DNA from: Bacteroidaceae bacterium
GTDB taxonomy: Bacteria; Bacteroidota; Bacteroidia; Bacteroidales; Bacteroidaceae
DNA length: 64,000 nt
Reading direction: 5' to 3'
NCBI GenBank assembly: GCA_045650605.1
Contig: JAZRRI010000036.1
Location: 18,755-82,754, forward strand
Part shown: piece after piece, positions 7,819-29,430 of the stretch
How positions within the stretch are numbered: the stretch's first letter is position 1
Layout: each line of letters opens with the position of its first letter
The notes under the pieces: model-generated
What the model saw: the letters and a program-made list of their open reading frames with translations, nothing else
Database searches by the model: none
What the model was told of the DNA's origin: nothing
Program-made: the position numbers and the translations under genes

Positions 7819-8502
7819 TTACATGACTTCATACAATATCCCACTGTAATTGTCGGTGGAGAATTTCTCGCACATGAACTTTATCACGTCGACAACATTC
7901 TCCAGCTTTTTGTTGTCTTGCAGGCGTGCTGTAAGTTTCTGTGGGGCCATGGCCTTGTACACACCATCGGTGCAAAGGAATATTCTGTCGCCTTTCTCCA
8001 CCTCGATGCAGGTGATGTCCGGGATTGCAACTTCCGGGTCCATTGAGAAGAAACAGCGTGTAACAATCTCTGTTCCCGGACGGGAGTGGTCGGTTGTCTG
8101 GTGTACAACCTCGCCATTGCGCAACAGGTAGCATCTGCTGTCGCCGCAATGTGCTATGGTTACCGTGTTATTCTCCACACTTGCCATTACGAGTGTTGTT
8201 CCCATCTCAATGGGACGTACCATTCTTGAACGGTAGTAGAGAGCTTCGCTTGCATGTGCAAACGCTGTCAATACCTTCTCTTCGCAATCACTCTTGCCGG
8301 GGTTATCCTCCCAGAAATTGCATACTGCATTGCACACAGTCTCGGCAGCAGCATCGCCCATTGCATGGCCGCCCATGCCGTCGCACACCACCAGCAGGCA
8401 GCGGTTCTCTTCGGGCATTTCAACAACACGGCATATATCCTGGTTTGCTATTCTCTTGCCGGTCTCGGAGAATATCGTATACATGTATTTTTGCTTTTCC
8501 AT
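7819..8502 (-). CDS. PP2C-family Ser/Thr protein phosphatase
   Basis: 227 aa. Motif LLVVCDGMGGHAMGDAAAE and a later CTDGV metal-binding motif. Confidence 0.85.
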   Translation of the reverse strand: MEKQKYMYTIFSETGKRIANQDICRVVEMPEENRCLLVVCDGMGGHAMGDAAAETVCNAVCNFWEDNPGKSDCEEKVLTAFAHASEALYYRSRMVRPIEMGTTLVMASVENNTVTIAHCGDSRCYLLRNGEVVHQTTDHSRPGTEIVTRCFFSMDPEVAIPDITCIEVEKGDRIFLCTDGVYKAMAPQKLTARLQDNKKLENVVDVIKFMCEKFSTDNYSGILYEVM

Positions 8503-8554
8503 GTCTCGTTTATTGGTTTATACGTTTTGTACAGTAATTTCTTCTTAAGAGAAA

Positions 8555-8594
8555 AACAAACGGCAAAATCTATCATCCGATTCTGCCGTTTGTT
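8555..8594 (-). terminator. hairpin terminator after the RyR gene
   Basis: 15-bp stem with one mismatch (aacaaacggcaaaat / attctgccgtttgtt), followed on the minus strand by a T-run. Confidence 0.55.
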
Positions 8595-8612
8595 CAGTAG
8601 GTTGTATTCAAA

Positions 8613-8903
8613 TTACTCTTTCGTAATTTTGAATCCCAGTTTTGTTATAAGTTTTAGGGTTCCAAAGGCTGTGTCGCGGTCATATGCCTTCTCCACCTCG
8701 GGCAGCTCCTCGTAGGGCACCAGGCAAGGGTGGGTCTTCAAGGTGTCGTTGCGCTCCTCGCCATAGGTCCAGCCCTGCTCCATGCGGCTCTGCGCCCACA
8801 CGTCGTGTACGTTCTTTGCAATCTTTTCTACAAGTTCATCTAACTCTGCCGGCAACTGCACGTCATTTGTGTTCACCGGCTGCGGTACATAATTCTTTTT
8901 CAT
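8613..8903 (-). CDS. stand-alone RyR (ryanodine-receptor repeat) domain protein
   Basis: 96 aa. VHDVWAQSRMEQGWTYGEERNDTLKTHPCLVPYEELPEVEKAYDRDTA matches the RyR-domain signature. Close paralogue of the RyR segment in ORF 25212-26348. Confidence 0.8.
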   Translation of the reverse strand: MKKNYVPQPVNTNDVQLPAELDELVEKIAKNVHDVWAQSRMEQGWTYGEERNDTLKTHPCLVPYEELPEVEKAYDRDTAFGTLKLITKLGFKITKE

Positions 8904-8977
8904 TGTTCTTTGTGTTATAGTTTATATTATAGAACAATTTCTGATGCGGAATCTGTCAGCGTATATAAAATTTATAT

Positions 8978-9196: not shown

Positions 9197-10909
9197 TTAA
9201 TAGATAATTACTCCTGCATATTGGCGTTTCCCTTTTGCCAGTTCGCGAAAGAACTTTTTTGCCGAAGCTACATATTCTTTGCTTTCGGGATGGTAGCTCT
9301 GATATACCATAAGCATTGAATCCATATCAGCATATGCTACGTCCGGAGTAATGGAAGATGTTGTATGTATATTCATTGACTTCATCTCCTGACGGTTCTC
9401 TACAAGTATTGCAAGGTATGTTCCCCACCTGCGTATCTTGCCCCATTTGTTCCATTGCTTGTCATCTTCTTCCAATGTGCATTTCTCTTTAAACTGTTCA
9501 TAAATCTGTACAATTTGATTATCAAGTTCAAGCAGGCCATATTTATATTTCAAACTCTTTACAACAACCTCTTCCGCCTTAACCTTTTCTTCGCGTAAAG
9601 CAAGTTCGTGTTGCATAGCTTCAAGTTGTGCAAAGTCTTCATGCATCTGCTTTTCAAATTGTGCAAAACCTTCATGCATTCGCTTTTCAAGCCTGTCATT
9701 CTCTTTTTGTAAATCTTCCAGTTCTGCATCGGTCTTTTCAAGAATACTGCTGTATCTTGAGTGAGCGTCATAGGCAAGTTTTGATTCAGTCTTCATCCTG
9801 CTCTCATAATATTCTTTGCTTTCATCAATCTTATAGAATAGGATAGGGAAGTGTAGCCACTCTTCGTTTATTTTGTTGTATAGCTCTCTAGAATATTTGG
9901 GGAAAGCTGACAATTCGCATAGAGTGGAGAGGTAGTATGCGTTTATAGAATGTTCTAAGGCTTCAAAAAGCACAGACACAAATCTGCGATTGGAAGTGTT
10001 TGGCTCAGTTACAGCTGTACGTATTATGTTCAATGTGTTTATATAATCGGTATAATACAATGTCGCAAGTGACGGAGATATGGATATGCTTTCAGCATTT
10101 ATCCCATGTAATGAGAGTAAAAAACTGTGATATGAATTAATATCCATTGGTACTGAATCGACTTGCCAAATCTGTCTTATATTTTGTTCTACCAGATCAA
10201 TACTTGACAACATCTCTTCTTGATAAGATTTGATACGCTCCGGTCTCTGCTCATAATTGAGCATGTTATTGAATGTCTCCCAACTCTGTTTCAGGTAGTC
10301 ATTCTCTGCTGCAATGATATGTACTTGGCTTGCGTCTATTGTAAGGCATGTTGCATATTTCTTGCATACATCGCGAGACAAAACCATGAATACAGCAAAA
10401 ATTATTGCAACCAATGCCAATAGAGAGGAAATTATTATAGATGAAATTTTTATAAGTTTCTTTATTGGCAGGTGACGTTTGCTAAGCAAATATCGTTTTT
10501 GCAGTTTCTCCATTGCCATGTCAAAGTATTCGACAGAACCGGCTGCAACAGCCTGGTAGTTGCACAGCTCTTCCATACCTTGCGGCATTGGATTTGGCCA
10601 TACAAAGCCATTGAGCATTACCGGTATAATGTTTTTTTTGTGACTCATTGCGCACAACACCTCTTTGCGCACCCAGTCTTCTTCATTGCTACACCGTTCG
10701 AGAGCATCAGGGGGTAATACAATAACAAAGTCACGACATCCTTCTATTACATTGAACAATTGTTCATTGAATGGTCCCGAGCGCATAGATTCGAGGTCAA
10801 AGAATACTCTGTATCCGGCCGATTTCAAGCGTGTCGCTATCAGGTTTGCTGTTTCGTAAGAACTGCGGCGGTAGCTTATAAAAATATCATAATTATGTTT
10901 CATCGTCAT
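9197..10909 (-). CDS. TIR domain - TM - helical/coiled-coil protein (C-terminal PDZ truncated by a stop)
   Basis: 570 aa. N-terminal TIR (YDIFISYRRSSYE...RVFFD...DWVRKEV), one TM (ISSIIISSLLALVAIIFAVFMVL) and a long helical C-terminal region with an 11-aa tandem repeat. Confidence 0.85.
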   Translation of the reverse strand: MTMKHNYDIFISYRRSSYETANLIATRLKSAGYRVFFDLESMRSGPFNEQLFNVIEGCRDFVIVLPPDALERCSNEEDWVRKEVLCAMSHKKNIIPVMLNGFVWPNPMPQGMEELCNYQAVAAGSVEYFDMAMEKLQKRYLLSKRHLPIKKLIKISSIIISSLLALVAIIFAVFMVLSRDVCKKYATCLTIDASQVHIIAAENDYLKQSWETFNNMLNYEQRPERIKSYQEEMLSSIDLVEQNIRQIWQVDSVPMDINSYHSFLLSLHGINAESISISPSLATLYYTDYINTLNIIRTAVTEPNTSNRRFVSVLFEALEHSINAYYLSTLCELSAFPKYSRELYNKINEEWLHFPILFYKIDESKEYYESRMKTESKLAYDAHSRYSSILEKTDAELEDLQKENDRLEKRMHEGFAQFEKQMHEDFAQLEAMQHELALREEKVKAEEVVVKSLKYKYGLLELDNQIVQIYEQFKEKCTLEEDDKQWNKWGKIRRWGTYLAILVENRQEMKSMNIHTTSSITPDVAYADMDSMLMVYQSYHPESKEYVASAKKFFRELAKGKRQYAGVIIY

Positions 10910-10948
10910 TTTGCTTTTAATGTATTTAAATAAGTGTTGGAACCGATA

Positions 10949-11674
10949 TTACAATTCCGTCATCTCTATGTTCTCGGTACTATCCCTTAAAATAAGTTCC
11001 TTGATTCTGCTACCTCCATACTTCCACATCTTGTGGCAGAATACCAGAAATACAATTGTTAGAATGCCACTGATGGCAGGTGTTACGTCTGTTGTGAATA
11101 GTATTGAATCATATAGTCCATGAACGATGATAGGTGCAACCAATATAAGAATCTTATTCTTCAATGGTGTCTTGGGATAGAATTTGGCAAGTGAATAATA
11201 GTATCCCATAAGTATGCCGAAACAGAAATGTCCGGGCACGGAGAATATGGCGCGGCTTATACCTACCGACAGATATGATTCTACATTAGAGAATAGATAC
11301 ATAATATTCTCCAATGCAGCGAAACCAAGCGAAATGCATACTGCATATACAATACCGTCCATTTTTTCGTCAAAGAATCTGTTTTTGCGCAGCACCAACC
11401 ATAATAGGAAAAACTTGGCAATCTCCTCGGGTATTGCTGCACCAAAAAAAGAGGTACTTATAGCTCCAAGGATGGATGCCGGTTCCATGGTATATAACCC
11501 AAGAGATTCCAACGGTGTGGATATACAAAGGGAGAGCGGCGCAGCCAACACCCCAACGAAAAATGTCTTGAGCAACTGTCCCACAGGCTCGGGCGAGTTC
11601 TTGTCCTTACGGTAGATGTAGAATCCAAGGATGGCTATCGGAAGGAGAGCTGTTAGGAGAATTGTATAGTCCAT
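10949..11674 (-). CDS. PrsW-family intramembrane glutamic protease
   Basis: 241 aa, polytopic. Motifs AAIPEEIAKFF, FAALENIMY and HGLYD. Confidence 0.8.
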   Translation of the reverse strand: MDYTILLTALLPIAILGFYIYRKDKNSPEPVGQLLKTFFVGVLAAPLSLCISTPLESLGLYTMEPASILGAISTSFFGAAIPEEIAKFFLLWLVLRKNRFFDEKMDGIVYAVCISLGFAALENIMYLFSNVESYLSVGISRAIFSVPGHFCFGILMGYYYSLAKFYPKTPLKNKILILVAPIIVHGLYDSILFTTDVTPAISGILTIVFLVFCHKMWKYGGSRIKELILRDSTENIEMTEL

Positions 11675-11678
11675 AGTT

Positions 11679-13133
11679 CTAATTATTTAAGAATTCTCTT
11701 TCGTAAATATCTTTAACTTTATTTATGGTTTCATCCGATAATCCAAATGAAGAATTCAATATATCCTCATATTCTAATGTAAAAAAACATTCTTTTCCAC
11801 TTATGCTCCCTCTGTAATTAAATATAATACCATATTGGTCGTTTTGCAATATTTTTTTATAATCTCCCGTAATACTTTTTAATGATTCTTCTTTTAGTAG
11901 ATTTAACAATGATGCAAATTCTTCAAAAGATACATGATTTTCATCTATGATATAATTATATTTCAAATATGGAGTGTCCTTTTTAATGTTAATTAGAGTT
12001 CGTGATTCATCTACCTTAATAGGGCACTTCATATTTATAATTTCTATAACATTATCAATATTTATCTCCAACATGTTGTCAGAAACATTATGGTTATATG
12101 GCTCTACATTATTTGTCTCGTTAATACTTTCACGTATATTTATTGCAATAGCAACAATAGCAAGAAGGATAATAGGGGCATATATGATTCCCATGATTAT
12201 CAAAAAAAAATTTCTTCGTTTCTTTAGTTTCTTTTTTTTCTTTAATTCCTCCGATTCTATACCTAAAGCTAATGAATAACCTTCTATATTATTTGGATAA
12301 GACTTCACATCAAAATCCTCTTTTAGATAGCTCATTACATAAATATCCTTATCCGATTTTTGATCAGCAGGAACTTTAGGGAATGATATTTTGTGGGTAA
12401 ATTGTTGTCGCACATTCTCATATTTCTGAATATCATCAATAATATAGACCGTCTTTGCCAACATTTTAAACGATTGTTCTATTTCCCAAATACAACTTTT
12501 CCTATCATTGACAAGAATGTATATAGTTTGAGACTTCTCCATCAATTCCAACACATCATTTTGCCAACTATCATCATTAAGATATACTCTTGTAGCGCCT
12601 CTTGGACTATTAACTTCTTTGGTCATTCCAACAGCACATATCGGGATGTTCTGCATTACAAGTGATGTGAATTCGTATTCAGAGAAACTGTCATAAGTTT
12701 TTTCAGAAACCACAGGGTCATGACCATAATCATCTTGTTCAAATCCTCTGAGGAACAAACAATATCTATTATTCTGTTCTAAGAAATCATGTTTAGTAGC
12801 TGTGGATATATTACCAACAGCTTTAATCGCAGCATTTTGTTTTCTCAAATAAATATACATTGCAACTCCTGTTAATCCTATATTGCGGATTAAATTCCCA
12901 ACATTTTGGGGATCTTCAAAATTTGTGATTACAATGGTTGTTACAACTTCAAAAATAGCATATAGAATTAACATTAAAATCAGCATTATAATTCTATTGC
13001 GCTTAAGTTTTTTTCGTATCTCTATTGCGATATTCGCATCTGTCGTTTCATTTAATAATTGAATATCATTCTTTTCCATAAGTTTAATGACAAATGGATA
13101 CAAAACAGCTACTATCAGGGCTACTATTATCAT
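11679..13133 (-). CDS. membrane protein with cytoplasmic TIR-like LRGF domain and C-terminal periplasmic domain (paralogue P1)
   Basis: 484 aa and very AT-rich. N-terminal TMs, then CLFLRGFEQDD...RVYLNDDSW...IYILVNDRKSCIWEIEQ, then a KKKKKLKKRRN-flanked TM and a ~150-aa C-terminal domain. Confidence 0.6.
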   Translation of the reverse strand: MIIVALIVAVLYPFVIKLMEKNDIQLLNETTDANIAIEIRKKLKRNRIIMLILMLILYAIFEVVTTIVITNFEDPQNVGNLIRNIGLTGVAMYIYLRKQNAAIKAVGNISTATKHDFLEQNNRYCLFLRGFEQDDYGHDPVVSEKTYDSFSEYEFTSLVMQNIPICAVGMTKEVNSPRGATRVYLNDDSWQNDVLELMEKSQTIYILVNDRKSCIWEIEQSFKMLAKTVYIIDDIQKYENVRQQFTHKISFPKVPADQKSDKDIYVMSYLKEDFDVKSYPNNIEGYSLALGIESEELKKKKKLKKRRNFFLIIMGIIYAPIILLAIVAIAINIRESINETNNVEPYNHNVSDNMLEINIDNVIEIINMKCPIKVDESRTLINIKKDTPYLKYNYIIDENHVSFEEFASLLNLLKEESLKSITGDYKKILQNDQYGIIFNYRGSISGKECFFTLEYEDILNSSFGLSDETINKVKDIYEREFLNN

Positions 13134-13521: not shown

Positions 13522-15105
13522 TCATGATTTATCGCTGATTAGAAATCCATATACCGCATTTTTCAAACCAATTTCAGTATTAGAGTATGCCTTTACGATA
13601 GTTTGTCCGCCTTTTTGGTACACCATCATGTGATTATGAACTATTTCTTCCGATTTTAGGCAAGTAGGCAATTCTTCGCCCATTTTCTCTTTAACGATAT
13701 TTAGATTAGTGATATCATCAACATAATAAATTGTTTTATCCGAGAAAACGGTATTACATTGTCTTATTTCCCAAATGCAGTTGTCATTAGGATGAACTGA
13801 AACAAGAATGTATTTTGCCAATTCCATCAAAGTTCTTGCATCGCTCATCCAACTGTCATTATCCAAATATATGCGTTTAGTTCCTTCAGGACTTTCAAGT
13901 TCTTCAGGCAGTCCGACGCTATATGTTTGATAATATCGTTTCCACGCTTTTGCCAAACTCTTTTCGTTTAGAGTAAGCTGATTAGGATTTATCTCTTTTT
14001 CATAAGAATCAAAGTTTGTATTCCCTGGTTTAGCATTTGACACGGTATCTGCTATTTTCTCCATACTAGGAGTATAGTTATCCGTTATGAATCCCCTCAG
14101 ATATAGAATGAAGTTTCTCTCCTTACTCATGAACTTCTTCATGGTCATAAAATTCATTGGTAGAGACAGAGTAGAAAGCAAGTTCAGCAATAGTCCACCG
14201 CCGCTACACAAAATGGGAATGGTCATATATTTACTAACCTGATTTCCATGAACAAGAAGAATTGCCAATAATATGATTCCAATAATGGTGATAACAATGC
14301 GTAAGACAAATCTGACAACAGAATAGCCAATTCGTATATTTACAGATTTCTTTGCGGTATTTGTACGTGACATATTCTTGGCGAATAACACTTTCACACC
14401 AAATATTGCTGCTAGTGACAACACAAGGTAAAGCATAAAAAAACCAAGGCTCTTCAACATTTTTACCATGGGAGTTGACTCCTTTGTATCTTTGTACTTG
14501 GTGACAGATGTAATGTCGTTTACTTCTGAGTCATACGTCTCGAACGAATTATCCAAATCATTTACATCAGTTTCCTCATCCAAATCAAACAACTGCTCTA
14601 TGGTCATCGTTGATCTATGGAATTCCAAATCTATGGCATTGCTTTCATCGCCAAGAATAAACGAAATAGTGTCAGGGCTGTCATGTGTGACATAAATCAT
14701 CCTCACATCTTCGAAGTTGGCAAACATTGGCTTTACCGTATTCTCTATCTGCTTGATAATCTGCCCTTCTGAAACAGAAGTATTTTTTTCGTATGTAACG
14801 AACTTCAAGAGGCTAACCTTTAGTGACCTTTGGTTCAAACTGACAAAAAACAACGGACCAATTTTGTCATATTTTCCATCCATAGAGACATTCCAAACGC
14901 ATCTACCTACGCCAGCAATCTGGTTGTCTGTAACGAAACTCATAGACATGACGGAGTCGTTCTTGAAGTAATACTCTATTATGGCTTTTTCTGTTCCCTC
15001 TACCATCTGGTCCGTTTGCCATATACCAAACCAATCTGATTGGGCATGAAGATTAATGCTCATAAAAAAGGAAAGAGAAAAAAGAATTAAGAAAAACTTT
15101 TTCAT
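13522..15105 (-). CDS. membrane protein with N-terminal periplasmic domain and C-terminal TIR-like LRGF domain (paralogue P2)
   Basis: 527 aa. Signal peptide MKKFFLILFSLSFFMSINLHAQ, three TMs, then ILYLRGFITDN...RIYLDNDSW...YILVSVHPNDNCIWEIRQ. Confidence 0.6.
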   Translation of the reverse strand: MKKFFLILFSLSFFMSINLHAQSDWFGIWQTDQMVEGTEKAIIEYYFKNDSVMSMSFVTDNQIAGVGRCVWNVSMDGKYDKIGPLFFVSLNQRSLKVSLLKFVTYEKNTSVSEGQIIKQIENTVKPMFANFEDVRMIYVTHDSPDTISFILGDESNAIDLEFHRSTMTIEQLFDLDEETDVNDLDNSFETYDSEVNDITSVTKYKDTKESTPMVKMLKSLGFFMLYLVLSLAAIFGVKVLFAKNMSRTNTAKKSVNIRIGYSVVRFVLRIVITIIGIILLAILLVHGNQVSKYMTIPILCSGGGLLLNLLSTLSLPMNFMTMKKFMSKERNFILYLRGFITDNYTPSMEKIADTVSNAKPGNTNFDSYEKEINPNQLTLNEKSLAKAWKRYYQTYSVGLPEELESPEGTKRIYLDNDSWMSDARTLMELAKYILVSVHPNDNCIWEIRQCNTVFSDKTIYYVDDITNLNIVKEKMGEELPTCLKSEEIVHNHMMVYQKGGQTIVKAYSNTEIGLKNAVYGFLISDKS

Positions 15106-15116: not shown

Positions 15117-16332
15117 TTATTAGTGATGCGTTAACTTTGCATCATTCTATTTTAAGTTGTTAATATATAATTATTTATATTCGTTCTTTGATTTTTTGAT
15201 TTGAATTGAGTTTATAATTTTGCCGGATAAACACTGCGAAATTATGAATAAAGGCAAGTTTGTATTCTCTCAAGTCATTGATTTCCTCCCTCGTTATGAG
15301 TTTGACAAGATTGTCAAGGTATACAATGGAGATTACCGATATAGACATTTGACAAGTTACAATCATTTGCTTCATTTGATATTCGGTCAACTTACGGGAT
15401 GTTATTCTCTTCGCGACATTTGTTTATGTCTAAAAGCTCACGAAAAATGGCTCTATCATCTTGGCTTTCGTCAAACAGTGAACGAATCGTCATTATCCAG
15501 AGCAGGAGAGAACCGCGATTATCGCATATTTGAAGAATTGGGTTCTGTACTAATTCAAATGGCTAGACCTTTATACTTCAAAGAAAAGATTCCCGATGTA
15601 TGGTTGCCCGAACAAGAAATTTTCGCTTTGGATTCAATAACTATATCTTGCAGTATAAAGCTGATGTCTTGGGCTCTTGGGAAGTATGAACGAGGAGCTG
15701 TGAAAATGCATACGCTTTTAGATTTGCGTGGCAACATTCATTTCAAAGCATTACACCGTATTCATACTAACAATGCCTATTTCATTACCAGAGCTAAGAA
15801 GAATATGAAGTACGAGGTTGTTGAAACCAACTACAATATATATGAGGAACAGGATTAAGAGGAGATTTTATTATAAACCTTACGGGGTATAACCCCCAAA
15901 AACTCTATCCTGAATCTTTTAGGCTTGTCAAATATTATGACTCCGATAATGAAGAATAATTAGAATTTATCACCAATTATCTTGATTTTGATGCCTTGGG
16001 CATCGCAAATCTTTATAGGAATAGGTGGCAAATAGAAACCTTCTTCAAATGGATTAAGGGCAACCTTGCTATTAAGACGCTTTGGGGGCACTCTGAAAAT
16101 GCAGTGAAGATACACCTGTGGGTTGCGATTTGCACATACCTTTGGTTGCTATCATCAAAGCAAAATGCAACAGTCAATACTCTATTACAGAAGTTGAAAT
16201 GTTACTCAGAGTATCCGCCTTAGAGCGAATCAATATAAGAGAATTGCTTACAAAGGCCATTGAAAAATTACTCAATCAAAACCAAAATGTCAAAGAACTA
16301 AATTTATTTGAATTTTTACGCATCAGTAATAA
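15117..16332 (+). mobile_element. decayed IS4-family insertion sequence with terminal inverted repeats
   Basis: IRs ttattagtgatgcgttaa (15117-15134) and ttacgcatcagtaataa (16316-16332) match at 15/17 positions. They enclose broken transposase ORFs. The element fills the gap between the P2 start (15105) and the STAND gene stop (16348). Confidence 0.7.
15244..16223 (+). pseudogene. IS4-family (DUF4372 + DDE) transposase, frameshifted and internally deleted
   Basis: N-terminus MNKGKFVFSQVIDFLPRYEFDKIV...HLTSYNHLL and C-terminus NLYRNRWQIETFFKWIKGNL are in different frames. The central catalytic segment after LLDLRGNI looks deleted. Confidence 0.75.
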
Positions 16333-21244: not shown

Positions 21245-22216
21245 TTATATCAAAGACTCTTCAATTGTGCTTAGGAACTTTTCCAATGCTACAATATGCT
21301 TACCCGTGTAGAACTTTAATTCTCCATTTATCAACAGCCCATTCCCTATCATCCATTCTTCATTCTTGGCAAAGAATTGAAGTAGAATCATATGGAAGGC
21401 GTGTTCTGCTGTAATGTTTTCTACATTGCGGTAGTAGAAATCCGTTGGAACAAGACGATTGTATTCCTTATCCCATTCCTCATTAGTCTCGCAATCGGCG
21501 ATTGATGATTTTAATTCTTGAGCATATTGTGATAGACCGTTGAAGTTTAATTGCAAACGCTCAAAAGTTGCATCAATGGCAATGCTACCGTATACTTCTT
21601 TAAGTTTAGCGTAGAGCATATTCTCGCAAGACACGCGTACATATTCCATCAATGCACTACGATACTCAATAATATCATCTATATTGTTTCCTTGAATGCG
21701 TTCGAGTAAGGTGTTTTCCTTTGCTTTATTGAACTTTTCAAGTATATCGTTTTCCGAAATAGGGGCAGTATAGAGATTCCCATAACTTCTTGATGAATTT
21801 TTTATTCTTTCAACAAGTAGTTTAATCGCTTCCTGCATATTCACAATACCATTACTCCAAGTTTGAAGTTCTATGCTTCTCTCTACCTTAGAGATGACGG
21901 CATTTGTAATTTCATCTGTTGAATGGCTATCCAAATAGTTTTGGTATTCAGCAATCATTCTATCTTTAAGGTCATAACCCAACTCTTGCGACAGTTCATT
22001 GGATAGTTTACCCTCAACTTTTACTTTCTCAAATGAAAGATGTTTATTACAAAGAGATTCTATCTCTTGCTTACCCTGACCTATCAACCAATTAAGGTCA
22101 ATTACGCCATATAACTTTTCTGCTATTTCTTTAGCAGGAAGAGAGTCTTCCTGCAGCAAACTATACTGCAAGAAGTCTCTATTAAATCTGTTTTTCAGAT
22201 ATTCCTTTTTATCCAT
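21245..22216 (-). CDS. hypothetical protein (helical)
   Basis: 323-aa ORF with ATG start, tightly packed in the array. No family recognised. Confidence 0.5.
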   Translation of the reverse strand: MDKKEYLKNRFNRDFLQYSLLQEDSLPAKEIAEKLYGVIDLNWLIGQGKQEIESLCNKHLSFEKVKVEGKLSNELSQELGYDLKDRMIAEYQNYLDSHSTDEITNAVISKVERSIELQTWSNGIVNMQEAIKLLVERIKNSSRSYGNLYTAPISENDILEKFNKAKENTLLERIQGNNIDDIIEYRSALMEYVRVSCENMLYAKLKEVYGSIAIDATFERLQLNFNGLSQYAQELKSSIADCETNEEWDKEYNRLVPTDFYYRNVENITAEHAFHMILLQFFAKNEEWMIGNGLLINGELKFYTGKHIVALEKFLSTIEESLI

Positions 22217-22218: not shown

Positions 22219-22725
22219 TTATAGAGGTCTACCACAGCTTGAGCAGAAGTTTGCAGATTCTGCATTCTGAGTACCACAGCCAGTACAGAACTTGTGTCCC
22301 GTTGCCGGTGTGGTCTCTATCGTGTTGCTATTATTTGCAGCAATTACACCCTCTGCAATTTTCAATGCCTTATCATCAAGCTTTGCTTGCTCTACCATAC
22401 CCCAAATCTGAGTAATGAGAACCGGCCAGAAGAAGAGCATAGAGATTACAGTAGGAATTGCCTGCTGTCCCCAGATACCCACACCTGCTTCAAAGTTGAT
22501 ATTGCTGCCTTGGGGAAGCAAAGTAACCTTCAATGCTGTTTTCATACCCAATACAGCTTTGAATACACCGCCTTTAGTGATAGAAATATCATAGCCACCG
22601 CTGCTCAAAGCGTCCATAGACACTTCGTAGCCATCGTTCTGAAACTCCTCCTGAATACGGTTTGCAATAGTAGGTATCAAAGATGTTGAACCGTATAATA
22701 TCTTTTTAGTGCTAAAAGTTGCCAT
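22219..22725 (-). CDS. hypothetical protein with hydrophobic segment and C-terminal zinc ribbon
   Basis: 168 aa. C-terminus CTGCGTQNAESANFCSSCGRPL. 2-nt gap to the next gene. Confidence 0.55.
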   Translation of the reverse strand: MATFSTKKILYGSTSLIPTIANRIQEEFQNDGYEVSMDALSSGGYDISITKGGVFKAVLGMKTALKVTLLPQGSNINFEAGVGIWGQQAIPTVISMLFFWPVLITQIWGMVEQAKLDDKALKIAEGVIAANNSNTIETTPATGHKFCTGCGTQNAESANFCSSCGRPL

Positions 22726-22730: not shown

Positions 22731-22988
22731 TTATTTGTTAATGTTTTGAATTGAATGAAAGTTGTACACTGCGTACAACACGCTTGTCTCTACAAGCAGA
22801 CTCTTTATCTCTTCAACCTGCTCTTTGCTGTATTTTCCCTCCATATCGTGAAGCATTGCTACAACCTTGTCAGACTGTGCTTTAATCTCCTCTTCGGTGA
22901 TTACTCCATCTTCCATAATATTTTTGAAAGATGCATTATTGACGACCATTTCGTCAATGTTCAGGATTCCTTCTTCGTTAAAAAACAT
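22731..22988 (-). CDS. small acidic hypothetical protein
   Basis: 85 aa, ATG start, 5-nt gap to the downstream gene. Confidence 0.45.
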   Translation of the reverse strand: MFFNEEGILNIDEMVVNNASFKNIMEDGVITEEEIKAQSDKVVAMLHDMEGKYSKEQVEEIKSLLVETSVLYAVYNFHSIQNINK

Positions 22989-23024: not shown

Positions 23025-23243
23025 TTACATATCTGGACCTTTAGAAAATTCGTGTTTACAGTTCAAACAAATGTAATACACACTAGGACATACAGCTCTT
23101 CCAGCAGCTCTGGAAGGTCCTTGCGGATAGCGTGTGACAAACGATGATGTAAAAAACGTTACAGCAGCTGCACCCCATGCCAGAGCCCTTTTTCCAGGAT
23201 TTGTCGTAATTGTTCTTTCTGAACCACATTTTGGGCATTTCAT
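23025..23243 (-). CDS. small zinc-ribbon protein
   Basis: 72 aa. MKCPKCGSE...CLNCKHEF gives two CxxC pairs flanking a hydrophobic segment. Confidence 0.5.
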   Translation of the reverse strand: MKCPKCGSERTITTNPGKRALAWGAAAVTFFTSSFVTRYPQGPSRAAGRAVCPSVYYICLNCKHEFSKGPDM

Positions 23244-23258: not shown

Positions 23259-24137
23259 TTATAATTTGGTGCCACAATGTTTGCAATATGCCCAATCTGC
23301 ACATACTGCCTTGTTGCATTTAGGACATTTCTTCCCCGATGTTTGAGTTTTCAGATTCTGCATCAAATTTTTATATTGTGTACTTTTCCCCCATGTGAGA
23401 ATTTCACGTACACGTACTGCGCTGAATGGGTGAGTCATACCAATGGTAACAGCAAGCTGCAATGTTTTATTCCATAGACCATCATTTTTTATTTGGTCAT
23501 ACTTGTCGGCTTGTAAAGCCCATTCCTGCATGTTGATTTTATTTGTAATGGATTTGGGTCCACCTGCCAATCTGGCCATTGAACGTGCAACTACTTCGGG
23601 AGAAGTAATAACGCTACCACACCTATCACAAGACAACTCTGCTTTACGACTCCAATAGAGAAGTGCATATTCAATTGGTTTTGCTATTGAACCTAAAATA
23701 CCAAGAGCGTCAAGACCCATTTTAAGATAGTCGGCTACCATCTTGTAAACAACATGGCGACACAAAATATGACCGCACTCGTGAGCCAAAATAGCATCAA
23801 GTTCTTCGTCATCCATCATCTCCACAAGTCCGGATGTTACCACAATAAAAACTCTTGTGTCTCCTGATGTGTATGCATTAGGCATTGGATCCATTTCCAA
23901 ATAGAACTCCGGCTCTTTGATGCCTAAGCGTTCACAAATAGGAGGAAGATGCCTGTAAAGTTCGGGTAACTGGGTCGGGGATAAACGAATGGTTGATGCC
24001 ATGTTCAAACCGTACTTTAACTTCTCATATCCCAACTCCAAGACTTTTTTTGCAATCGCAGGAAAACCCGGAATGCTTTCTAACTGACGCAACGCAGCTG
24101 CGTCTTCTGGATGAATAAATTCTGCAGGTTTAATCAT
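23259..24137 (-). CDS. M48-family zinc metallopeptidase with C-terminal zinc ribbon
   Basis: 292 aa. HECGHILCRH (HExxH) and C-terminus CPKCNKAVCADWAYCKHCGTKL. No obvious TM. Confidence 0.8.
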   Translation of the reverse strand: MIKPAEFIHPEDAAALRQLESIPGFPAIAKKVLELGYEKLKYGLNMASTIRLSPTQLPELYRHLPPICERLGIKEPEFYLEMDPMPNAYTSGDTRVFIVVTSGLVEMMDDEELDAILAHECGHILCRHVVYKMVADYLKMGLDALGILGSIAKPIEYALLYWSRKAELSCDRCGSVITSPEVVARSMARLAGGPKSITNKINMQEWALQADKYDQIKNDGLWNKTLQLAVTIGMTHPFSAVRVREILTWGKSTQYKNLMQNLKTQTSGKKCPKCNKAVCADWAYCKHCGTKL

Positions 24138-24143: not shown

Positions 24144-24653
24144 CTATTTTATATATTGTTTTCTTTTTCCTCGAAGGTAAGATGCTCTTCTCCAAATTTC
24201 ATTGACAAGATTAATTTTGGATCTATTGGCAAAAGCATAGATATTTACTCCCTCTCTTACACACCATACCATACCTGATTTATTGACTTTATAATAACAG
24301 CGTACCCAAGCGCTCAAGAGAAGGATGCCAAATATCGAAATACATAATATGACACCTATGAAGTAGAGAGTAAATACTGAAGGTTGATAGATCACACCAC
24401 TGTTTACTTCTTCAATAAACGCATCAGAATAAACTATTTTCCCAAAAGGTCCATATTCCATTGAAGCGACCTTCTTGTCAGTTATACACACAAAACTTTT
24501 GGTTGTAAAAAAGACACCATAACTGCCTAAATACTCGACAGTGATAATAGTTTCATCTTCAGCCATGAAAGTTTGGAACATGGCTTTAATAGCTTCTTTG
24601 TCGCCTAGTGTCGCTTGTTTTACAATCGAACCATCAATCTGAATTTTTGCCAT
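24144..24653 (-). CDS. hypothetical membrane protein
   Basis: 169 aa. Soluble N-terminal part, then a TM (VFTLYFIGVILCISIFGILLLSAW). Confidence 0.5.
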   Translation of the reverse strand: MAKIQIDGSIVKQATLGDKEAIKAMFQTFMAEDETIITVEYLGSYGVFFTTKSFVCITDKKVASMEYGPFGKIVYSDAFIEEVNSGVIYQPSVFTLYFIGVILCISIFGILLLSAWVRCYYKVNKSGMVWCVREGVNIYAFANRSKINLVNEIWRRASYLRGKRKQYIK

Positions 24654-24672: not shown

Positions 24673-25188
24673 TTATTTATCTTCGAAAATCCGTTTTATA
24701 AATCGCAGTATTTTATTTTGAGGTTCATTCCATTGAAGGACATCGATATATTCTCGTTCTTTAATATTATTGACCTCTTCTTTCCTTTCTCCATATAACA
24801 ATGATTTAATGTCTGCCACTAGTGCTTTTGCTTTCTGAGTAGAATATGGAGTAGCATCTATGCAATTTAAGTCGGTCATAACAAATTGCAACTTCTTGCT
24901 AAAAGAAGAATTGTCTATTTTGTATGGAATGATATATTTACCGGCATTGAATGCTAATGCGACTTCCTTTGCTGTATATATAGAATTATTGGAGTCTGAA
25001 GATGAAATAAATAAGGTTATTGTAGAATTTTCTATAGCATCAACTATATCTGCCATAAACTCACTTCCCATATGGACTTTTTCAGTGTCTAACCAATAGG
25101 TTATGGCATTTGAATCTAATAGTTGCCTTATTTCACCTACGACTGCCAGGTCTTTCCGTGAATAGCTTATAAATACATCGTATTTCAT
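24673..25188 (-). CDS. stand-alone TIR domain protein
   Basis: 171 aa. YDVFISYSRKDLAVVGEI...YWLD...IYTAKEV. Confidence 0.85.
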   Translation of the reverse strand: MKYDVFISYSRKDLAVVGEIRQLLDSNAITYWLDTEKVHMGSEFMADIVDAIENSTITLFISSSDSNNSIYTAKEVALAFNAGKYIIPYKIDNSSFSKKLQFVMTDLNCIDATPYSTQKAKALVADIKSLLYGERKEEVNNIKEREYIDVLQWNEPQNKILRFIKRIFEDK

Positions 25189-25211: not shown

Positions 25212-26348
25212 TTACTCATACAATGACCAGTCGATGTCGATTCTTTTACCGCATACGTCGCAGAATACCTGTTTCTTGTATATTACGCTATTGCAATGTG
25301 GACAATGGAACTCCTGCTGTGAGTTGCGTATGCGCTCTCTTAGTATTCTGTAAAGTTCAGTGTCTTCGCGCTTAATCAAATCGTAACCCAGTTTTATCAG
25401 CAGCTTGATTGTGTCCATGGCCATGTTGCGGTCGAAATCCTTTTCTTTCTCCGGCAGTTGTGAATATGGTACCATGCAAGGATTTTCTTTCTTTGCGTCG
25501 TTGCGCTCCGGGCCAAAGCTCCAACCTTGTGCAATACGTTCAACAGCCCATACTTCGTGGGCATTCTCCGCAATTGCTTCACGCAGTTCGTTCAGGTCCT
25601 CTGCCAGTTGTACATCTGTCAGGTCAATAGGTCTTGGAGTGTATGTTTTCATATCTTTTGTGTTTATGGTTACTAAATAGTTTTTTGAATCGTTCCATGC
25701 ATCGACGAATTGTTCGATGGGGTAGGTGTCCTCGCTGTTTGGTGAGTTGGGGTCATGTACAATCACGCAATTGTTGACAGTATCACAGGAGAGGACAACC
25801 ACTGTGTGGTCGGGAATTTCGCCAATCAATATGTCCTCGATAATCTCTTCGCTTCTATTCCCAAGCAACTCTCCGCCATCAACAGCAACTATTACACTGT
25901 CATTTGCATTGAGAGCATTTACTATATCGTCAATAGAGGCGTTATATTGGCGGGCAACAGCAAGGCCTTTTGCCTCTAAGTGGCGTCCTACATTATGTAG
26001 CGCAGTTCCGGTTTCTTTCTGCCAGCCATTTTTAATTGCATTTTGCAGCAGTTGTTCTTCGTCAAACTCTATATTAAACTTGCGGAGTATATATTTCTCA
26101 CACTCAAGGCTGCATAAATTCTCGCTGTTGCATGTGGCTGCAATAGCCGTCATTGGGATAGGCTCGCATTCATTGGGCTGTTTTCCCAATTCGGTGTCTA
26201 CTAATTGAGAAATACGTAGCAATTCTCTTAATTCAGCATCGTGGGGTAGTGTTTCGAGTATCTCTTTGCACTCCTGTGCGCTCGCATTTCCCTCAAGGAA
26301 TGCTGCCAACACCTCTGCCGGGATGTTATCTGCTGGTTTCTTCTTCAT
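25212..26348 (-). CDS. multidomain protein: anti-sigma-like N-terminus, papain/C39-like peptidase, RyR domain, zinc ribbon
   Basis: ATG at 26348 (the track start at 26357 is TTG). Candidate Cys in ENLCSLECEKYIL and His in PDHTVVV. RyR segment AHEVWAVERIAQGWSFGPERNDAKKENPCMVPYSQLPEKEKDFDRN. C-terminus CPHCNSVIYKKQVFCDVCGKRI. Overlaps the sigma gene by 23 nt. Confidence 0.65.
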   Translation of the reverse strand: MKKKPADNIPAEVLAAFLEGNASAQECKEILETLPHDAELRELLRISQLVDTELGKQPNECEPIPMTAIAATCNSENLCSLECEKYILRKFNIEFDEEQLLQNAIKNGWQKETGTALHNVGRHLEAKGLAVARQYNASIDDIVNALNANDSVIVAVDGGELLGNRSEEIIEDILIGEIPDHTVVVLSCDTVNNCVIVHDPNSPNSEDTYPIEQFVDAWNDSKNYLVTINTKDMKTYTPRPIDLTDVQLAEDLNELREAIAENAHEVWAVERIAQGWSFGPERNDAKKENPCMVPYSQLPEKEKDFDRNMAMDTIKLLIKLGYDLIKREDTELYRILRERIRNSQQEFHCPHCNSVIYKKQVFCDVCGKRIDIDWSLYE

Positions 26349-26895
26349 ACTTCTCAATCTCCTTTAGTGCTATTTCAGTCAAGGCTGCAATGGCACGTTT
26401 TTTTATGTTATACAAATTGTCTACATTGGTCATTAGTTCCGCAGCCACAACCTTTGGCTCGGCTTCTTCCAGGACCAATCGTCTTATTACATGGACATAG
26501 CGCTTGTTCGGCATCATTGAAAACAGGTGCTCTATATCCATTTTTGCATTTGTCGCCGCCTCATTGACGGTGTCTTCATGTATCTCATTCTCAAAAAGAT
26601 TCACTTTGGGTTCCATATCTATCATGTTATTGCGCTTTGCAATAAAGTAGCGAATAGCAATTACTTTCATCCACTGATAGATAGTGCTACGACCTTGGAA
26701 CTGTCTTAAACGATATGCATCGTTTTCCATTAGGTGCAGATAGAATTCGTTTACAAATTCATCGTAGTCAACCTCATAGGAGAATACATTACGCATTATG
26801 CTCATGAAAAGCGGGCGGCAACTCTTGAAAAAGAACTGCTGCGTCACTCGCTCGTCCCGAGCAATCAATGCTTCAATTATTTGTTGGTCGGTCAT
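26326..26895 (-). CDS. ECF-type sigma-70 family RNA polymerase sigma factor
   Basis: 189 aa. Region-2-like FVNEFYLHLMEND...WMKVIAIRYF and region-4-like RYVHVIRRLVLEEAEPKVVAAELMTNVDNLYNIKKRA. Confidence 0.75.
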   Translation of the reverse strand: MTDQQIIEALIARDERVTQQFFFKSCRPLFMSIMRNVFSYEVDYDEFVNEFYLHLMENDAYRLRQFQGRSTIYQWMKVIAIRYFIAKRNNMIDMEPKVNLFENEIHEDTVNEAATNAKMDIEHLFSMMPNKRYVHVIRRLVLEEAEPKVVAAELMTNVDNLYNIKKRAIAALTEIALKEIEKYEEETSR

Positions 26896-26901
26896 TGTTT
26901 G

Positions 26902-29430
26902 TTACTCTTTAAGATATGATGTGTACGCTGTAGGCAACACTTTTATCAACGTTTCGTCCAGTTCCATTACGTTGCAATCAATTTCTTTCAATTTGCTGTT
27001 TGAACAAATATCAAGATGAGCTAAATTCTTTTTTAATCTATTTTTCTCCATAGCAGACGAATAAAGGTCGGTAATTTTTGCTTTCATCTGTTCGTCGTAT
27101 GTTAAAGGACGGTAGCGCAGCAACAATTGCTCTAAAACCCATCTGTTGTGTTCTACTTCTCCCAATTTTTTCATCATTGAGCCTTCAAATCCTTTTGACG
27201 GGTCTGTTCCAAAACATCTGAACTTACTGAACATTGAATAGATGTTATACTGATTTGACCACATCTTTGCAGACTTTGGTTTATCGTTGGTTTTATACAT
27301 ATTGGCTCTGGGATTTTCAAAAGATTTCTTTACTTCAGAATATTTTATTTTTCCACGGTTTTCTTTTATCCACTCGTCACATCCTTTTTTGATTTTTTCT
27401 TTATTCTTGTCAGAACTTATGCTATAATAACCATTGGAGATTTTATCATAATCTTCGTCTGTCAATTTTTTATAGCGCTTTTTCATCTGCTCCCAAACAA
27501 ATTGGTCATATGCATCTCCAACTTTTTTGGAAATACTTTCTGCCATCTCTGTTAAAGAAAGATTATAGCATTTTTTTGCCATTCCAAAAGCTTTGAGTTT
27601 TTCTGAATATCTGCCTTTATAGTTTATTTGATTGAGCAGTTCGTCGTCTAATCTTTGATAAACCAATACTTGTTGTGTAGAAGTTTCTTCATATATACAA
27701 CTCGGTAAATATGTAGCAGCAGCTATTGCACGACTATTTTCTGGCAGACATATTGCAATTGTCATTTTTGCATTCATGTTTCTGCTTGCATCTTCCAGAT
27801 ATTTTTGTATAGCCGGATTTTCAACAGAACCATTTATGAACTCCCACTCAATGTCAAGGAAGTCACCGCCTAAGTACTCAAATCCAGTCGGGATGTGGAT
27901 GTCCTGTGGCTTCCATTCCAAGACTCCGTTTTCATTGATGTTGCCATATCGCCAATGTGAAAGCGCAAACAGTTCCTTGAAACGTCCTATGAAGAAGTTC
28001 TTTTCCTCTGCTGCATTCTTGTCTATGAAGGTGATTTTTGTACGTATCTGTTTATTCTCATAATTTGGATAGTGGCATAAATGTGCTGCTTCTATTGCCA
28101 TAGCCACTCCCATGCGTGACATTCCTACAATTACAAGATGTACAAAATTATTGTCATCTGGTTTTATGCCATCAAATCCTTCAAGAGGCAAATACTTGCC
28201 ATTTCCTTTAAGTTCTTGGCATACAAGAACATTTTGAGCCCACATCTCATAGTAATTGAAGGGCAGGAACTTTATTTTATCAACATTGATATCTGTTACT
28301 TGAAGAACATTGAATGAGGTCTGGTATTCGAACATAACGCGACAAACCAGTTTTTCCCCTTTCTTGAATGCTTGGGAATTTTTGATTTCGTCATTGATTA
28401 ATCTCAAACATTTCATGTTCATTGTGTCATGATACGACTCAATGTCATCGGTTCTTGTATCCTCGCCAATGACAAAAACTTCTATTGCATTCTCAATGTG
28501 TAAATATGCAATGTCATCTTTAGAAGTGCGGTTGCCATAATATATGATTATATGCTTCTGTTGCTCCTCTGTCAGTCCCGAGAAGAGTTCACGCCTGAAG
28601 CTTTCTACATCGCGTAGGGTTTGGATAACTATGTAAGGCAACTTTTTGACCTTGTTATTGACGAACAGCTCGCTGACGATTCCAATGGCAACATCGTTTC
28701 CACCAATGACTATGTAGAATTTCTTTTTTGCTCTACGTAGAAAACTCTTGTATCTGACCTCTCCTTTTAGCCATAGCTCCCTGCGTCGGTCAATCCAACT
28801 GATGAGCATTGAAATCAATAGGCCGTTAAGGAGAAGAAAACCCAATGTGGCAATAATGCTGGAAATGATACGCCCTCTGTGCGTTGTTGTCATATGTTGG
28901 TTCCCCGGGTCGATAAAATGGTAGTATACAGTCCACAACAGTGATGGGTCTTCCTGTTTTTCCTTTATAGAGTCCGGCAAGTTTGATTGCTTGAGTATGG
29001 TGCAACTCTTTTCTCCTTCATTGCATGTTATGATACCTAATGTGTCTATTCCTGAATACTCCTCTTTATATAGATTATCTTCGTAGACCAATTCTTTGCT
29101 TGATAGGCAGTGATAATCTTCTTTGGCACAATGTTTGTCGGTAATGGCGATGTTGACAAGATGAACGATTGCTGTGATTGTTACAGGTATGAACAATACA
29201 AATTTTATGACCTTGCCCAAGAAGTTTCCTCTTGTCAAAAGCCAATCACGTTTTATGGGTTTGCAGAAAACAATAAAGTACCGTATGCAGTATATGAGAC
29301 CAATAGCACCGACAATGATTTCAAAACACTGTTTCTGCCAAAAGATACCAACTACATACGTAATTATACATATGGCGAGTAATGCGATTTCTAAAAATTT
29401 CCAAATAATATTCTTTATTGTATTGCGCAT
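26902..29430 (-). CDS. CASTOR/POLLUX-like putative ion channel with two RCK/Rossmann-like domains and a divergent RyR-like C-terminus
   Basis: 842 aa. N-terminal TMs and a pore-loop-like LLWTVYYHFIDPGNQH followed by a TM. Then FYIVIGGNDVAIG and LVIVGMSRMGVAMA. C-terminus VEHNRWVLEQLLLRYRPLT...AHLDICSNSKLKEID. Confidence 0.5.
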   Translation of the reverse strand: MRNTIKNIIWKFLEIALLAICIITYVVGIFWQKQCFEIIVGAIGLIYCIRYFIVFCKPIKRDWLLTRGNFLGKVIKFVLFIPVTITAIVHLVNIAITDKHCAKEDYHCLSSKELVYEDNLYKEEYSGIDTLGIITCNEGEKSCTILKQSNLPDSIKEKQEDPSLLWTVYYHFIDPGNQHMTTTHRGRIISSIIATLGFLLLNGLLISMLISWIDRRRELWLKGEVRYKSFLRRAKKKFYIVIGGNDVAIGIVSELFVNNKVKKLPYIVIQTLRDVESFRRELFSGLTEEQQKHIIIYYGNRTSKDDIAYLHIENAIEVFVIGEDTRTDDIESYHDTMNMKCLRLINDEIKNSQAFKKGEKLVCRVMFEYQTSFNVLQVTDINVDKIKFLPFNYYEMWAQNVLVCQELKGNGKYLPLEGFDGIKPDDNNFVHLVIVGMSRMGVAMAIEAAHLCHYPNYENKQIRTKITFIDKNAAEEKNFFIGRFKELFALSHWRYGNINENGVLEWKPQDIHIPTGFEYLGGDFLDIEWEFINGSVENPAIQKYLEDASRNMNAKMTIAICLPENSRAIAAATYLPSCIYEETSTQQVLVYQRLDDELLNQINYKGRYSEKLKAFGMAKKCYNLSLTEMAESISKKVGDAYDQFVWEQMKKRYKKLTDEDYDKISNGYYSISSDKNKEKIKKGCDEWIKENRGKIKYSEVKKSFENPRANMYKTNDKPKSAKMWSNQYNIYSMFSKFRCFGTDPSKGFEGSMMKKLGEVEHNRWVLEQLLLRYRPLTYDEQMKAKITDLYSSAMEKNRLKKNLAHLDICSNSKLKEIDCNVMELDETLIKVLPTAYTSYLKE

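Follow-up and report, generated by a model that had tools for sequence, protein, structure and literature searches.

Among the systems described so far, those closest to the locus reported here were Thoeris, the phage proteins RyDEP and RyR Tad, the RCK-gated channels, the SigW-RsiW-PrsW system and the nSTAND1/TIR conflict systems. The locus occupied about 8.55-29.43 kb of a 64,000-nucleotide stretch of Bacteroidaceae DNA (GenBank assembly GCA_045650605.1, contig JAZRRI010000036.1, positions 18,755 to 82,754 of the forward strand), which is called the window below. An earlier note, made from the sequence alone, had taken it for a NADase conflict locus without a named counterpart. Similar to Thoeris (types I-VI), the locus encoded TIR proteins with the catalytic Glu, several of them here, together with candidate downstream proteins carrying a small-molecule-binding domain, which in this case was a domain known to bind the cyclic ADP-ribose (cADPR) isomers 2'cADPR and 3'cADPR; membrane-acting effectors are also found in several Thoeris types. 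Unlike Thoeris, with its ThsA-type SLOG or Macro sensor, the locus contained neither SLOG nor Macro, and its candidate sensor was the RyR Repeat12 domain. Thoeris consists of 2-4 genes, whereas the locus had 10-18 and added an extracytoplasmic function (ECF) sigma factor, three proteases and a STAND NTPase, and TIR was missing from 27% of the loci of this type. The Thoeris type III protein ThcB4 (NCBIfam) scored 32.8 bits against a cut-off of 220, and the ThsB matches in PADLOC were weak and covered the TIR portions only. No system of PADLOC-DB v2 was matched, the hits being limited to TIR domains and one PP2C hit (PDC-M21C), and no host RyR-TIR operon was described in the literature that could be searched, including full text, so that the lack of a named counterpart was borne out. 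Judged from its domains, the locus would be a TIR-based signalling immunity system, Thoeris-like in outline but not a member, with a new candidate sensor domain, a channel-like effector and a transcriptional arm. Our preferred explanation, held with about even confidence, is that the region is one modular accessory system, widespread in gut Bacteroidales, in which signals made by TIR domains are read by RyR domains.

To our knowledge, bacterial RyR-type domains had no known cellular role before the phage work of 2026. The affinity of phage PF02026 (RyR Repeat12) proteins for 2'cADPR, 3'cADPR and cADPR is in the nanomolar range (PMC13232231; 10.64898/2026.06.04.730250). RyDEP cleaves the ribose-ribose bond with a His/Asp dyad, while a Trp stacks on the adenine and a second His contacts the phosphates, the residues for 2'cADPR and 3'cADPR being H75, W78, H100 and D117 (PMC13232231); RyR Tad was reported in an independent 2026 preprint on phage RyR proteins (10.64898/2026.06.04.730250). 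In the window, a stand-alone RyR Repeat12 protein of 96 aa (RyR96; 8613..8903, minus strand) matched Pfam RyR at 3.2e-37 (127.1 bits against a gathering score of 27.4). Its residues H33, W36, H58 and D75 were the counterparts of all four RyDEP residues with the spacing of RyDEP, and they were invariant in 41-42 of 42 RyR96 homologues. A second Repeat12 was fused to a C39-like peptidase in the C39-RyR protein (25212..26348, minus strand; Pfam RyR 2.9e-34, 117.6 bits), which matched RyR1-3 Repeat12 and 3NRT at 1e-36 in a PDB profile search; in this family the H, W and D were kept, and the second His of the RyDEP set was replaced by Asn or Thr. RyR96 resembled the phage RyDEP/RyR Tad proteins as a small stand-alone PF02026 protein with an identical and identically spaced His/Trp/His/Asp pocket. 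The RyR domains of the locus differed from them in being host-encoded, in lying in TIR-rich operons and in being fused to peptidase/anti-sigma-like and channel-like proteins, which argues for a role as receptor or regulator rather than in immune evasion. In light of the RyDEP and RyR Tad preprints, the most plausible role of the RyR domains is to receive or quench cADPR-type signals made by TIR, and the TIR proteins are more likely signal generators than terminal NAD-depleting effectors. The recurrent RyR domains were the most distinctive trait of the locus.

Further RyR proteins were seen outside the window. A family of 730-800 aa with a canonical C-terminal RyR and an N-terminal part of unknown type occurred in L020, L038, L045 (3119-5437), L050, L073, L083 and L087 (individual related loci are given L numbers), usually between PrsW and the transmembrane TIR gene and in L087 at the position of the channel-like gene; it was not present in the window. 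RyR96 homologues with 64-67% identity were also found on human-faecal scaffolds labelled "UNVERIFIED Bacteriophage sp." (L090, MT837259.1, 11061-11354; L091, MT836850.1, 7046-8496), and on one of the two the RyR96 homologue was followed by a gene of the channel-like family. These scaffolds either are bacterial DNA contaminating the virome or represent a copy of the host RyR module carried by phage.

The conservation of the neighbourhood was analysed with C39-RyR as the anchor. One genome per species was scanned and 263 genomes were positive; 80 loci were fetched, all from metagenome-assembled genomes (MAGs), nearly all labelled Bacteroidales and mostly from herbivore and human guts, and 89 related loci were searched with profiles of every window protein. 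Its hosts included Bacteroidaceae, Alistipes/Rikenellaceae, Muribaculaceae, Paludibacteraceae, Barnesiella and Paraprevotella. The sigma factor gene lay directly upstream of C39-RyR in 89/89 loci, and a gene for the channel-like protein (protein A) just upstream of this pair in 73%. Downstream, the recurring order was M48, p85, p168, (p323), one or more TIR genes, an optional STAND part (SIR2-like-TIR plus nSTAND1, or TIR-STAND fusions), PrsW, a transmembrane (TM) TIR protein of about 600 aa and RyR96. This order was found at different chromosomal sites and in several Bacteroidales families, and the adjacency of the genes was not due to chance; the earlier note had named lack of co-conservation as the finding that would undo its neighbourhood, and co-conservation across Bacteroidaceae, Rikenellaceae, Muribaculaceae, Paludibacteraceae and others was what we found. 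Gene frequencies were taken from the 41 loci for which 8 kb or more of downstream sequence was available. TIR was present in 73% of them (30/41, with 0-5 per locus), RyR96 in 56%, p85 in 54%, p168 in 51%, PrsW in 29%, STAND in 27%, LRGF in 17% and PP2C in 7%; the values for the genes at the 3' end, RyR96 and PrsW among them, are lower bounds because the fetched downstream sequence spanned just 10 kb. The density of TIR open reading frames (ORFs) per 10 kb was 1.43 downstream of the anchor versus 0.17 upstream, where the cases were mostly permuted copies of the system. One locus, L075 (JAZTXF010000146.1), came from a MAG labelled Gastranaerophilaceae (Melainabacteria-type), and its channel-like and sigma genes were separated by three TIR genes; either the locus left Bacteroidales by horizontal transfer or the contig was binned wrongly.

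The constant part of the locus was the channel-like protein, the ECF sigma factor, the C39/RyR protein and the small RyR protein, and not the set of NADases; the TIR, SIR2-TIR, STAND and LRGF genes were variable cargo. The idea of a single NADase conflict locus thus survived as a co-conserved locus but not in its choice of the constant part. The modules were a constant 5' part (A, sigma, C39-RyR), a semi-conserved middle (M48, p85, p168, p323) and a 3' part (PrsW, TM-TIR, RyR96), with a hypervariable cargo slot that held extra TIRs, the SIR2-like-TIR plus nSTAND1 pair, LRGF membrane proteins and an insertion sequence (IS) relic. RyR was the domain that kept recurring in the constant core, and TIR the one that did so in the cargo. 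L004, L010 and L011, close relatives at the same chromosomal site, kept both ends and had the middle swapped, which identified the STAND/SIR2-TIR/IS/LRGF block of the window as cargo. Such differences in cargo at one chromosomal site would also be expected of a defence island in which independent systems (for example, SIR2-like-TIR with nSTAND1, the LRGF proteins, and TM-TIR with PrsW) were stacked by insertion and functionally uncoupled; the SIR2-TIR and STAND pair travelled as a cassette that was missing in the closest relatives L004 and L010, and the central cargo, with its IS relic, had the lowest GC (0.31-0.35). We regard this explanation as improbable. In distantly related hosts, cargo was repeatedly inserted at one place of the operon, with the conserved 5' module on one side and the conserved 3' module on the other; it was dominated by TIR, which is biochemically linked to the RyR of the core (PMC13232231), and the genes were co-directional and tightly spaced or overlapping. 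The low GC, the IS relic and the patchy distribution (263 species) gave the locus as a whole an accessory character.

Protein A (842 aa; 26902..29430, minus strand) is a membrane protein and a putative gated channel effector according to hydropathy analysis, AlphaFold (AF2) modelling and Foldseek searches. It consisted of four hydrophobic helices, a pore-helix-like motif (LWTVYYHFIDPGNQHM), tandem RCK-like Rossmann domains and a helical, divergent RyR-like C-terminus. The AF2 model from 44 homologues had a mean predicted local distance difference test (pLDDT) score of 84.8 and matched GsuK (4gx2_B) in the PDB at 1e-7, as well as Slo1/BK, CASTOR and MthK (Foldseek E 1e-7 to 1e-5, probability 1.0). 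In a viral structure library, the best match of the model was a phage potassium-channel protein, and no RyR match of the full model was obtained there. A is thus predicted to fold like an RCK-gated pore-loop channel (GsuK/Slo-like), in agreement with its first description as channel-like. It shared with GsuK, MthK, Slo1/BK and CASTOR a TM pore domain and tandem RCK gating-ring domains in the predicted fold, but differed from these channels in having no sequence similarity to them, in its added N-terminal helices and C-terminal RyR-like domain, and in its filter. The LWTVYYHFIDPGNQHM segment at the pore-helix/filter position was strongly conserved, and the selectivity-filter position of the family had a conserved DPGNQ, not TVGYG. 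None of the 1163 homologues was annotated, no relatives of known function were found at the sequence level, and a profile search of the PDB was unproductive too. The C-terminus, in which H761-x-x-W764, H805 and D818/D825 were invariant, had no Pfam RyR match. A non-iterated hidden Markov model (HMM) of RyR96, however, matched the homologous C-termini of other A-family proteins with E 6e-5 to 7e-4 in a 205-protein set, and an iterated search (jackhmmer) from RyR96 reached the A-family C-termini at an independent E-value of 4e-11. In L082 (11965-14475), an A-family protein had its N-terminal helices replaced by a canonical RyR domain (independent E-value 2e-36), which is independent evidence for RyR fusion to this channel family.

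The gene following A encoded an ECF-type sigma-70 family factor of 189 aa (26326..26895, minus strand). It matched TIGR02937 at 6e-10 over positions 5-163 of 165 of the profile; no match to Pfam Sigma70_r2/r4 was found, and the best PDB profile match was region 4 of FliA sigma, with E 0.4. The start of C39-RyR (381 aa as an ORF and 378 aa from the ATG) overlapped the sigma gene by 23 nt. C39-RyR was composed, in order, of an anti-sigma-like N-terminal helix region, a papain-like C39_2 peptidase, the RyR Repeat12 and a C-terminal Zn ribbon. No TM segment was found by hydropathy analysis, and the protein was read as cytoplasmic. The C39_2 domain (PF13529) of the window protein scored 22.1 bits against a cut-off of 24, most homologues (1377 were found for the protein) carried PF13529, and C79, H181 and D199 of the peptidase and H264, W267 and D306 of the RyR domain were invariant. 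Of the three proteases counted in the earlier note, PrsW and M48 were secure, and the C39-like domain lay just below the Pfam cut-off with its Cys/His/Asp invariant. PrsW elsewhere cleaves a membrane anti-sigma factor at the outer face, as with RsiW and SigW in Bacillus. The locus was similar to SigW-RsiW-PrsW in having an ECF-type sigma factor translationally coupled to the next gene and a PrsW in the same locus, but its sigma partner was a cytoplasmic protein with a Cys peptidase and RyR, and its PrsW adjoined the TM-TIR gene instead of the sigma pair; no RasP/S2P was found at the locus.

C39 peptidases are classically processors of leader peptides, and YD-like motifs were visible in the external region of the STAND protein, features that could fit an interbacterial antagonism or bacteriocin-type locus in which C39 processes a secreted peptide and the YD-repeat proteins are surface toxins. 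We consider this very unlikely, given that no ABC exporter, double-glycine peptide, Rhs core, toxin tip or immunity gene was present among the window proteins, that the C39-like domain was fused to RyR in a cytoplasmic protein, and that the YD-motif region was joined to a cytoplasmic STAND NTPase in a sensor-like arrangement. The bacteriocin/C39-exporter interpretation was rejected because neither an ABC transporter nor a leader peptide occurred at the locus.

If the locus is the TIR-RyR system that we favour, it might work as follows. The TIR modules would convert NAD+ into ADP-ribose-derived signals of the cADPR-isomer type, switched on by fused or adjacent sensors, such as the extracytoplasmic domains, the STAND NTPase and possibly cleavage of TM-TIR by PrsW. 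The RyR domains would be the common receptor of this signal. Its binding to A would gate an ion-conducting pore, and the resulting depolarisation or ion flux would lead to growth arrest or abortive infection, whereas its binding to C39-RyR would release or proteolytically free the ECF sigma factor as a transcriptional arm. The free RyR96, with the full His/Asp dyad of RyDEP, would buffer or hydrolyse the signal and thus set the threshold or reset the system. The trigger would most likely be a phage or another envelope-level attack; "envelope sensing" is here an inference from topology. The locus probably adds a new branch to bacterial immune signalling, with an ion-channel-like protein and a sigma switch as its endpoints. 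It provides the first host-side context found for RyR, namely a conserved operon in at least 263 species-level genomes in which RyR is fused to a channel-like protein and a sigma switch amid TIR genes, and its hosts are Bacteroidales abundant in gut and rumen, for which little of the phage defence repertoire has been mapped. If the coupling of TIR and RyR holds, TIR immune signalling would gain a new sensor domain and two new outputs (an RCK channel and ECF sigma release), the cADPR modulation of animal ryanodine receptors would have a testable evolutionary origin, and there would be a reason for the carriage of RyR-domain decoys by phages. A rather doubtful extension is that the locus is the prokaryotic counterpart of the animal cADPR-ryanodine-receptor axis, with TIR-made cADPR isomers read by Repeat12 on an RCK channel and on an anti-sigma/peptidase switch, a free RyR hydrolase, and Repeat12 ancestrally gating ion flux in immunity.

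Several observations weigh against the TIR-RyR explanation. Both the production and the binding of a signal by the proteins of the locus are predicted from their domains. The pore of A lacked the K+ signature, and because the filter reads DPGNQ instead of TVGYG, the conduction of ions by A is putative. Compared directly with RyR96 at the profile level (hhalign), the A C-terminus gave no significant match (E 0.37), and its AF2 model in isolation had a pLDDT of 55, too poor for a fold search. Of the three RyR domains claimed initially, those of the 381-aa and 96-aa proteins stood, and the third, at the A C-terminus, was supported transitively, through intermediate family members and not by a direct match. 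The sigma factor matched TIGR02937 over its full length, but its score of 39.0 bits fell just under the curated cut-off of 42.9, which leaves the ECF call probable. The anti-sigma role of the C39-RyR N-terminus is suggested by motif resemblance and gene coupling only. No ECF-type promoter was recognised upstream of A in a k-mer search, from which the TAnnTTTG motif alone emerged; this Bacteroidetes motif of the housekeeping type lay about 57 nt upstream of the A gene and at similar distances in many relatives. The Repeat12 of animal RyR binds ATP, ADP and drugs, and therefore the bacterial ligand could be an ordinary adenine nucleotide. Finally, TIR was absent in cis from 11/41 loci (27%), which ran directly into housekeeping genes. 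A minimal system of A, sigma, C39-RyR and RyR96 thus exists, and the RyR core can exist without a local TIR.

These minimal loci are the best support for the proposal that the core is a nucleotide/energy-state or envelope-stress regulon, in which RyR and RCK sense ATP, ADP, NAD+ or ions, a PrsW/M48 cascade acts on the sigma/anti-sigma pair, and the TIR, SIR2 and STAND genes are separate NAD-depleting effectors accreted to it. The binding of ATP and ADP by animal Repeat12, the crystallisation of GsuK, the closest structural relative of A, with NAD and ADP, the precedent of PrsW with ECF factors and the housekeeping-type promoter motif upstream of A are all compatible with it. Nevertheless, TIR genes were at least 8-fold denser specifically on the downstream side of the RyR core, and this in several Bacteroidales families, they kept to set positions (one from C39-RyR to M48, the other from PrsW to RyR96), the anti-sigma-like protein offered PrsW no TM segment, and the patchy, low-GC and cargo-swapping pattern was typical of conflict systems and not of housekeeping regulons. 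A regulon is considered fairly unlikely.

Three TIR domains were reported in the earlier note, and all three scored above the Pfam cut-offs (TIR_2 2e-19, 2e-19 and 1.5e-14). The first belonged to a stand-alone protein of 171 aa (24673..25188, minus strand; TIR_2 2e-19), which also matched ThsB_TIR at the domain level (22.3 bits against a cut-off of 21.2) and was located in the variable slot between C39-RyR and M48, a slot that held TIR genes in many relatives. The second was the C-terminal domain (TIR_2 2e-19) of a 454-aa SIR2-like plus TIR protein (19847..21211, minus strand), in which SIR2_2 was matched at 1.8e-7 (31.8 bits against a cut-off of 24.5). The SIR2-like domain read ITTSF and YYMFG(K/R) in 9/9 aligned family members (the window protein and 8 homologues). 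The canonical catalytic Asn and His of SIR2, which we take to lie in TTNYD and HG motifs, were thus absent in all nine, and for this reason NADase activity of the domain is doubtful; it may be a nucleotide-binding regulatory domain instead. The proposed SIR2-like NADase effector was accordingly upheld as a domain and doubtful in its role. The third TIR domain (TIR_2 1.5e-14) was N-terminal in the TM-TIR protein of 570 aa (9197..10909, minus strand), where it was followed by a TM helix at 158-176 and a coiled-coil-rich C-terminal domain of about 390 aa, a topology that resembled a Toll-like receptor; orthologues of 590-645 aa came after PrsW in relatives.

The STAND protein was an nSTAND1 NTPase of 1164 aa (16348..19842, minus strand), with matches to nSTAND1 (PF20703) at 2.3e-25 (90.4 bits against 27.1) and AAA_16 at 6e-8. 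Together with a Walker A of GKSGIGKSS and a Walker B of LLIIFDQFEE, these substantiated the first identification. A single TM helix (465-483) was followed by a YD-motif-rich C-terminal region of about 680 aa predicted to lie outside the cytoplasm; the YD repeats reported before were visible as motifs and nothing beyond motifs, and no match was found for a PDZ domain that had also been reported. The proposed membrane tethering of the TIR and NTPase modules was consistent with the hydropathy analysis. The cassette of SIR2-like-TIR and nSTAND1 was also found in L006, L025, L044, L053, L057 and L059. The locus shared nSTAND1, TIR and variable N-terminal effectors with the nSTAND1/TIR conflict systems (Kaur, Burroughs, Iyer & Aravind 2020/2021), but its STAND protein was membrane-spanning with an external repeat domain and was optional cargo. 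RyR, PrsW and M48 were not mentioned in the accessible parts of that STAND/TIR literature, nor in this context in a survey of TIR systems (10.64898/2025.12.03.692087).

The remaining cargo consisted of two LRGF-domain membrane proteins, an IS relic and a small membrane protein. The LRGF protein of 527 aa (13522..15105, minus strand) had a signal peptide, a periplasmic domain, TM helices and a cytoplasmic LRGF domain, and the one of 484 aa (11679..13133, minus strand) belonged to an unannotated family. They had a genuine domain in common (29% identity, 8e-18), in which R, D, E, E, R, C, W and E residues were invariant across the family. No Pfam domain was found in 63 LRGF homologues, nor a PDB relative of the family, and the hhalign match to TIR was weak (local P 0.004, probability 8.5%, 53 columns), so that of the two "TIR-like" domains noted initially the domain stood and the likeness to TIR was not confirmed. 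Between the LRGF genes and the STAND gene lay a degraded IS4-family transposase on the plus strand (15220..16230), with broken reading frames, a DUF4372 N-terminus (1.2e-30) and C-terminal fragments; this frame-broken IS4-type gene is the relic already recognised in the central part, and it marks the cargo region as a past insertion site. A 169-aa single-TM protein (24144..24653, minus strand), identified by hydropathy, had no detectable relatives in the related loci.

In the semi-conserved core, a soluble M48 Zn-metalloprotease with HECGH and a C-terminal Zn ribbon (23259..24137, minus strand; Peptidase_M48 7e-22) had its orthologue of 292 aa at the same position in most loci. It was followed on the minus strand by a 72-aa Zn-ribbon protein (23025..23243), recognised by its Zn-ribbon matches and present in 7 related loci; by p85 (22731..22988), a small acidic helical protein of the semi-conserved core with a conserved EF-hand-like EDGxITxEE motif; by p168 (22219..22725), also of this core, with an alpha/beta domain, a hydrophobic helix and a C-terminal Zn ribbon (Zn_Ribbon_1 1.2e-7; only Zn ribbons in a PDB profile search); and by p323 (21245..22216), an all-helical protein of unassigned fold present in 37% of loci. 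The E-D-G-x-[IV]-T-x-E-E of p85 was similar to the latter half of an EF-hand loop, with no conservation at the first positions of the loop, and a link to Ca2+ is speculative. C39-RyR, M48 and p168 all ended in a similar CxxC...CxxC zinc ribbon, which suggests a shared docking partner. The conserved 3' module began with a PrsW-family intramembrane metalloprotease (10949..11674, minus strand; PrsW-protease 1e-38), and the order PrsW, TIR(TM), RyR96 was kept in L004, L010, L011, L045, L047 and L050. Because the TIR Glu, the EExxK/H/HxxxD of PrsW, the HExxH of M48 and the Cys/His/Asp of C39 were all in place, the enzymes of the locus look active.

All long ORFs from 29430 down to 7819 were on the minus strand except the IS4-type transposase remnant at 15220-16230, which qualified the co-directional run described at first. 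That description had counted 13 genes between 29430 and 16348, and recounting on the ORF map gave 12, separated by 11 spacers of -23 to +36 nt, the range given before. The contrast in base composition was also reproduced, with a windowed GC of 0.31-0.42 over 9-30 kb versus 0.45-0.54 in both flanks, where the genes were of the housekeeping type (SDR and UPRTase on the left; ComF, RecX and PrmC on the right). No tRNA or integrase was found at the island borders, and no tRNA anywhere in the window. A scan for sigma-70 consensus promoters, a consensus not applicable to Bacteroidetes, was discarded, as 88 were found versus 78 expected from shuffles, which was no better.

The probable 3' end of the transcription unit was a terminator-like hairpin after RyR96 (8554..8595, minus strand), with a 17-bp stem and then a T-run, and the boundaries of the system were placed at about 8.55-29.43 kb, with PP2C and CreD treated as neighbours. 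The PP2C phosphatase (7819..8502, minus strand; PP2C_2 9e-18, PADLOC PDC-M21C 8e-10) had been included in the system by the earlier note. The domain assignment was correct, but the gene was rejected as a component because a strong terminator-like hairpin lay between, its GC was host-like and no more than 7% of loci contained it; it probably adjoins the system without belonging to it. Its stop was overlapped by 26 nt by a gene for a CreD-family inner-membrane protein (6480-7844, minus strand). CreD also came after the locus in L010 and L050 and near it in L013, and a vWA protein took its place after PP2C in L004, L012 and L023. Upstream of the system, two small divergent genes were present in the window, at 29700-29906 and 29927-30103, the latter HTH-like. 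In relatives, the channel-like gene often had a NusG-like gene before it; this NusG-family (UpxY-like) gene, detected with Pfam NusG and not present in the window, directly preceded the channel-like gene in L001 (6258-6824), L006 (6746-7321) and L007 (1748-2323), and unlabelled ORFs of about 190 aa occupied the same position in, for example, L022, L025, L035 and L039. The NusG-like gene before A hints at operon-specific antitermination.

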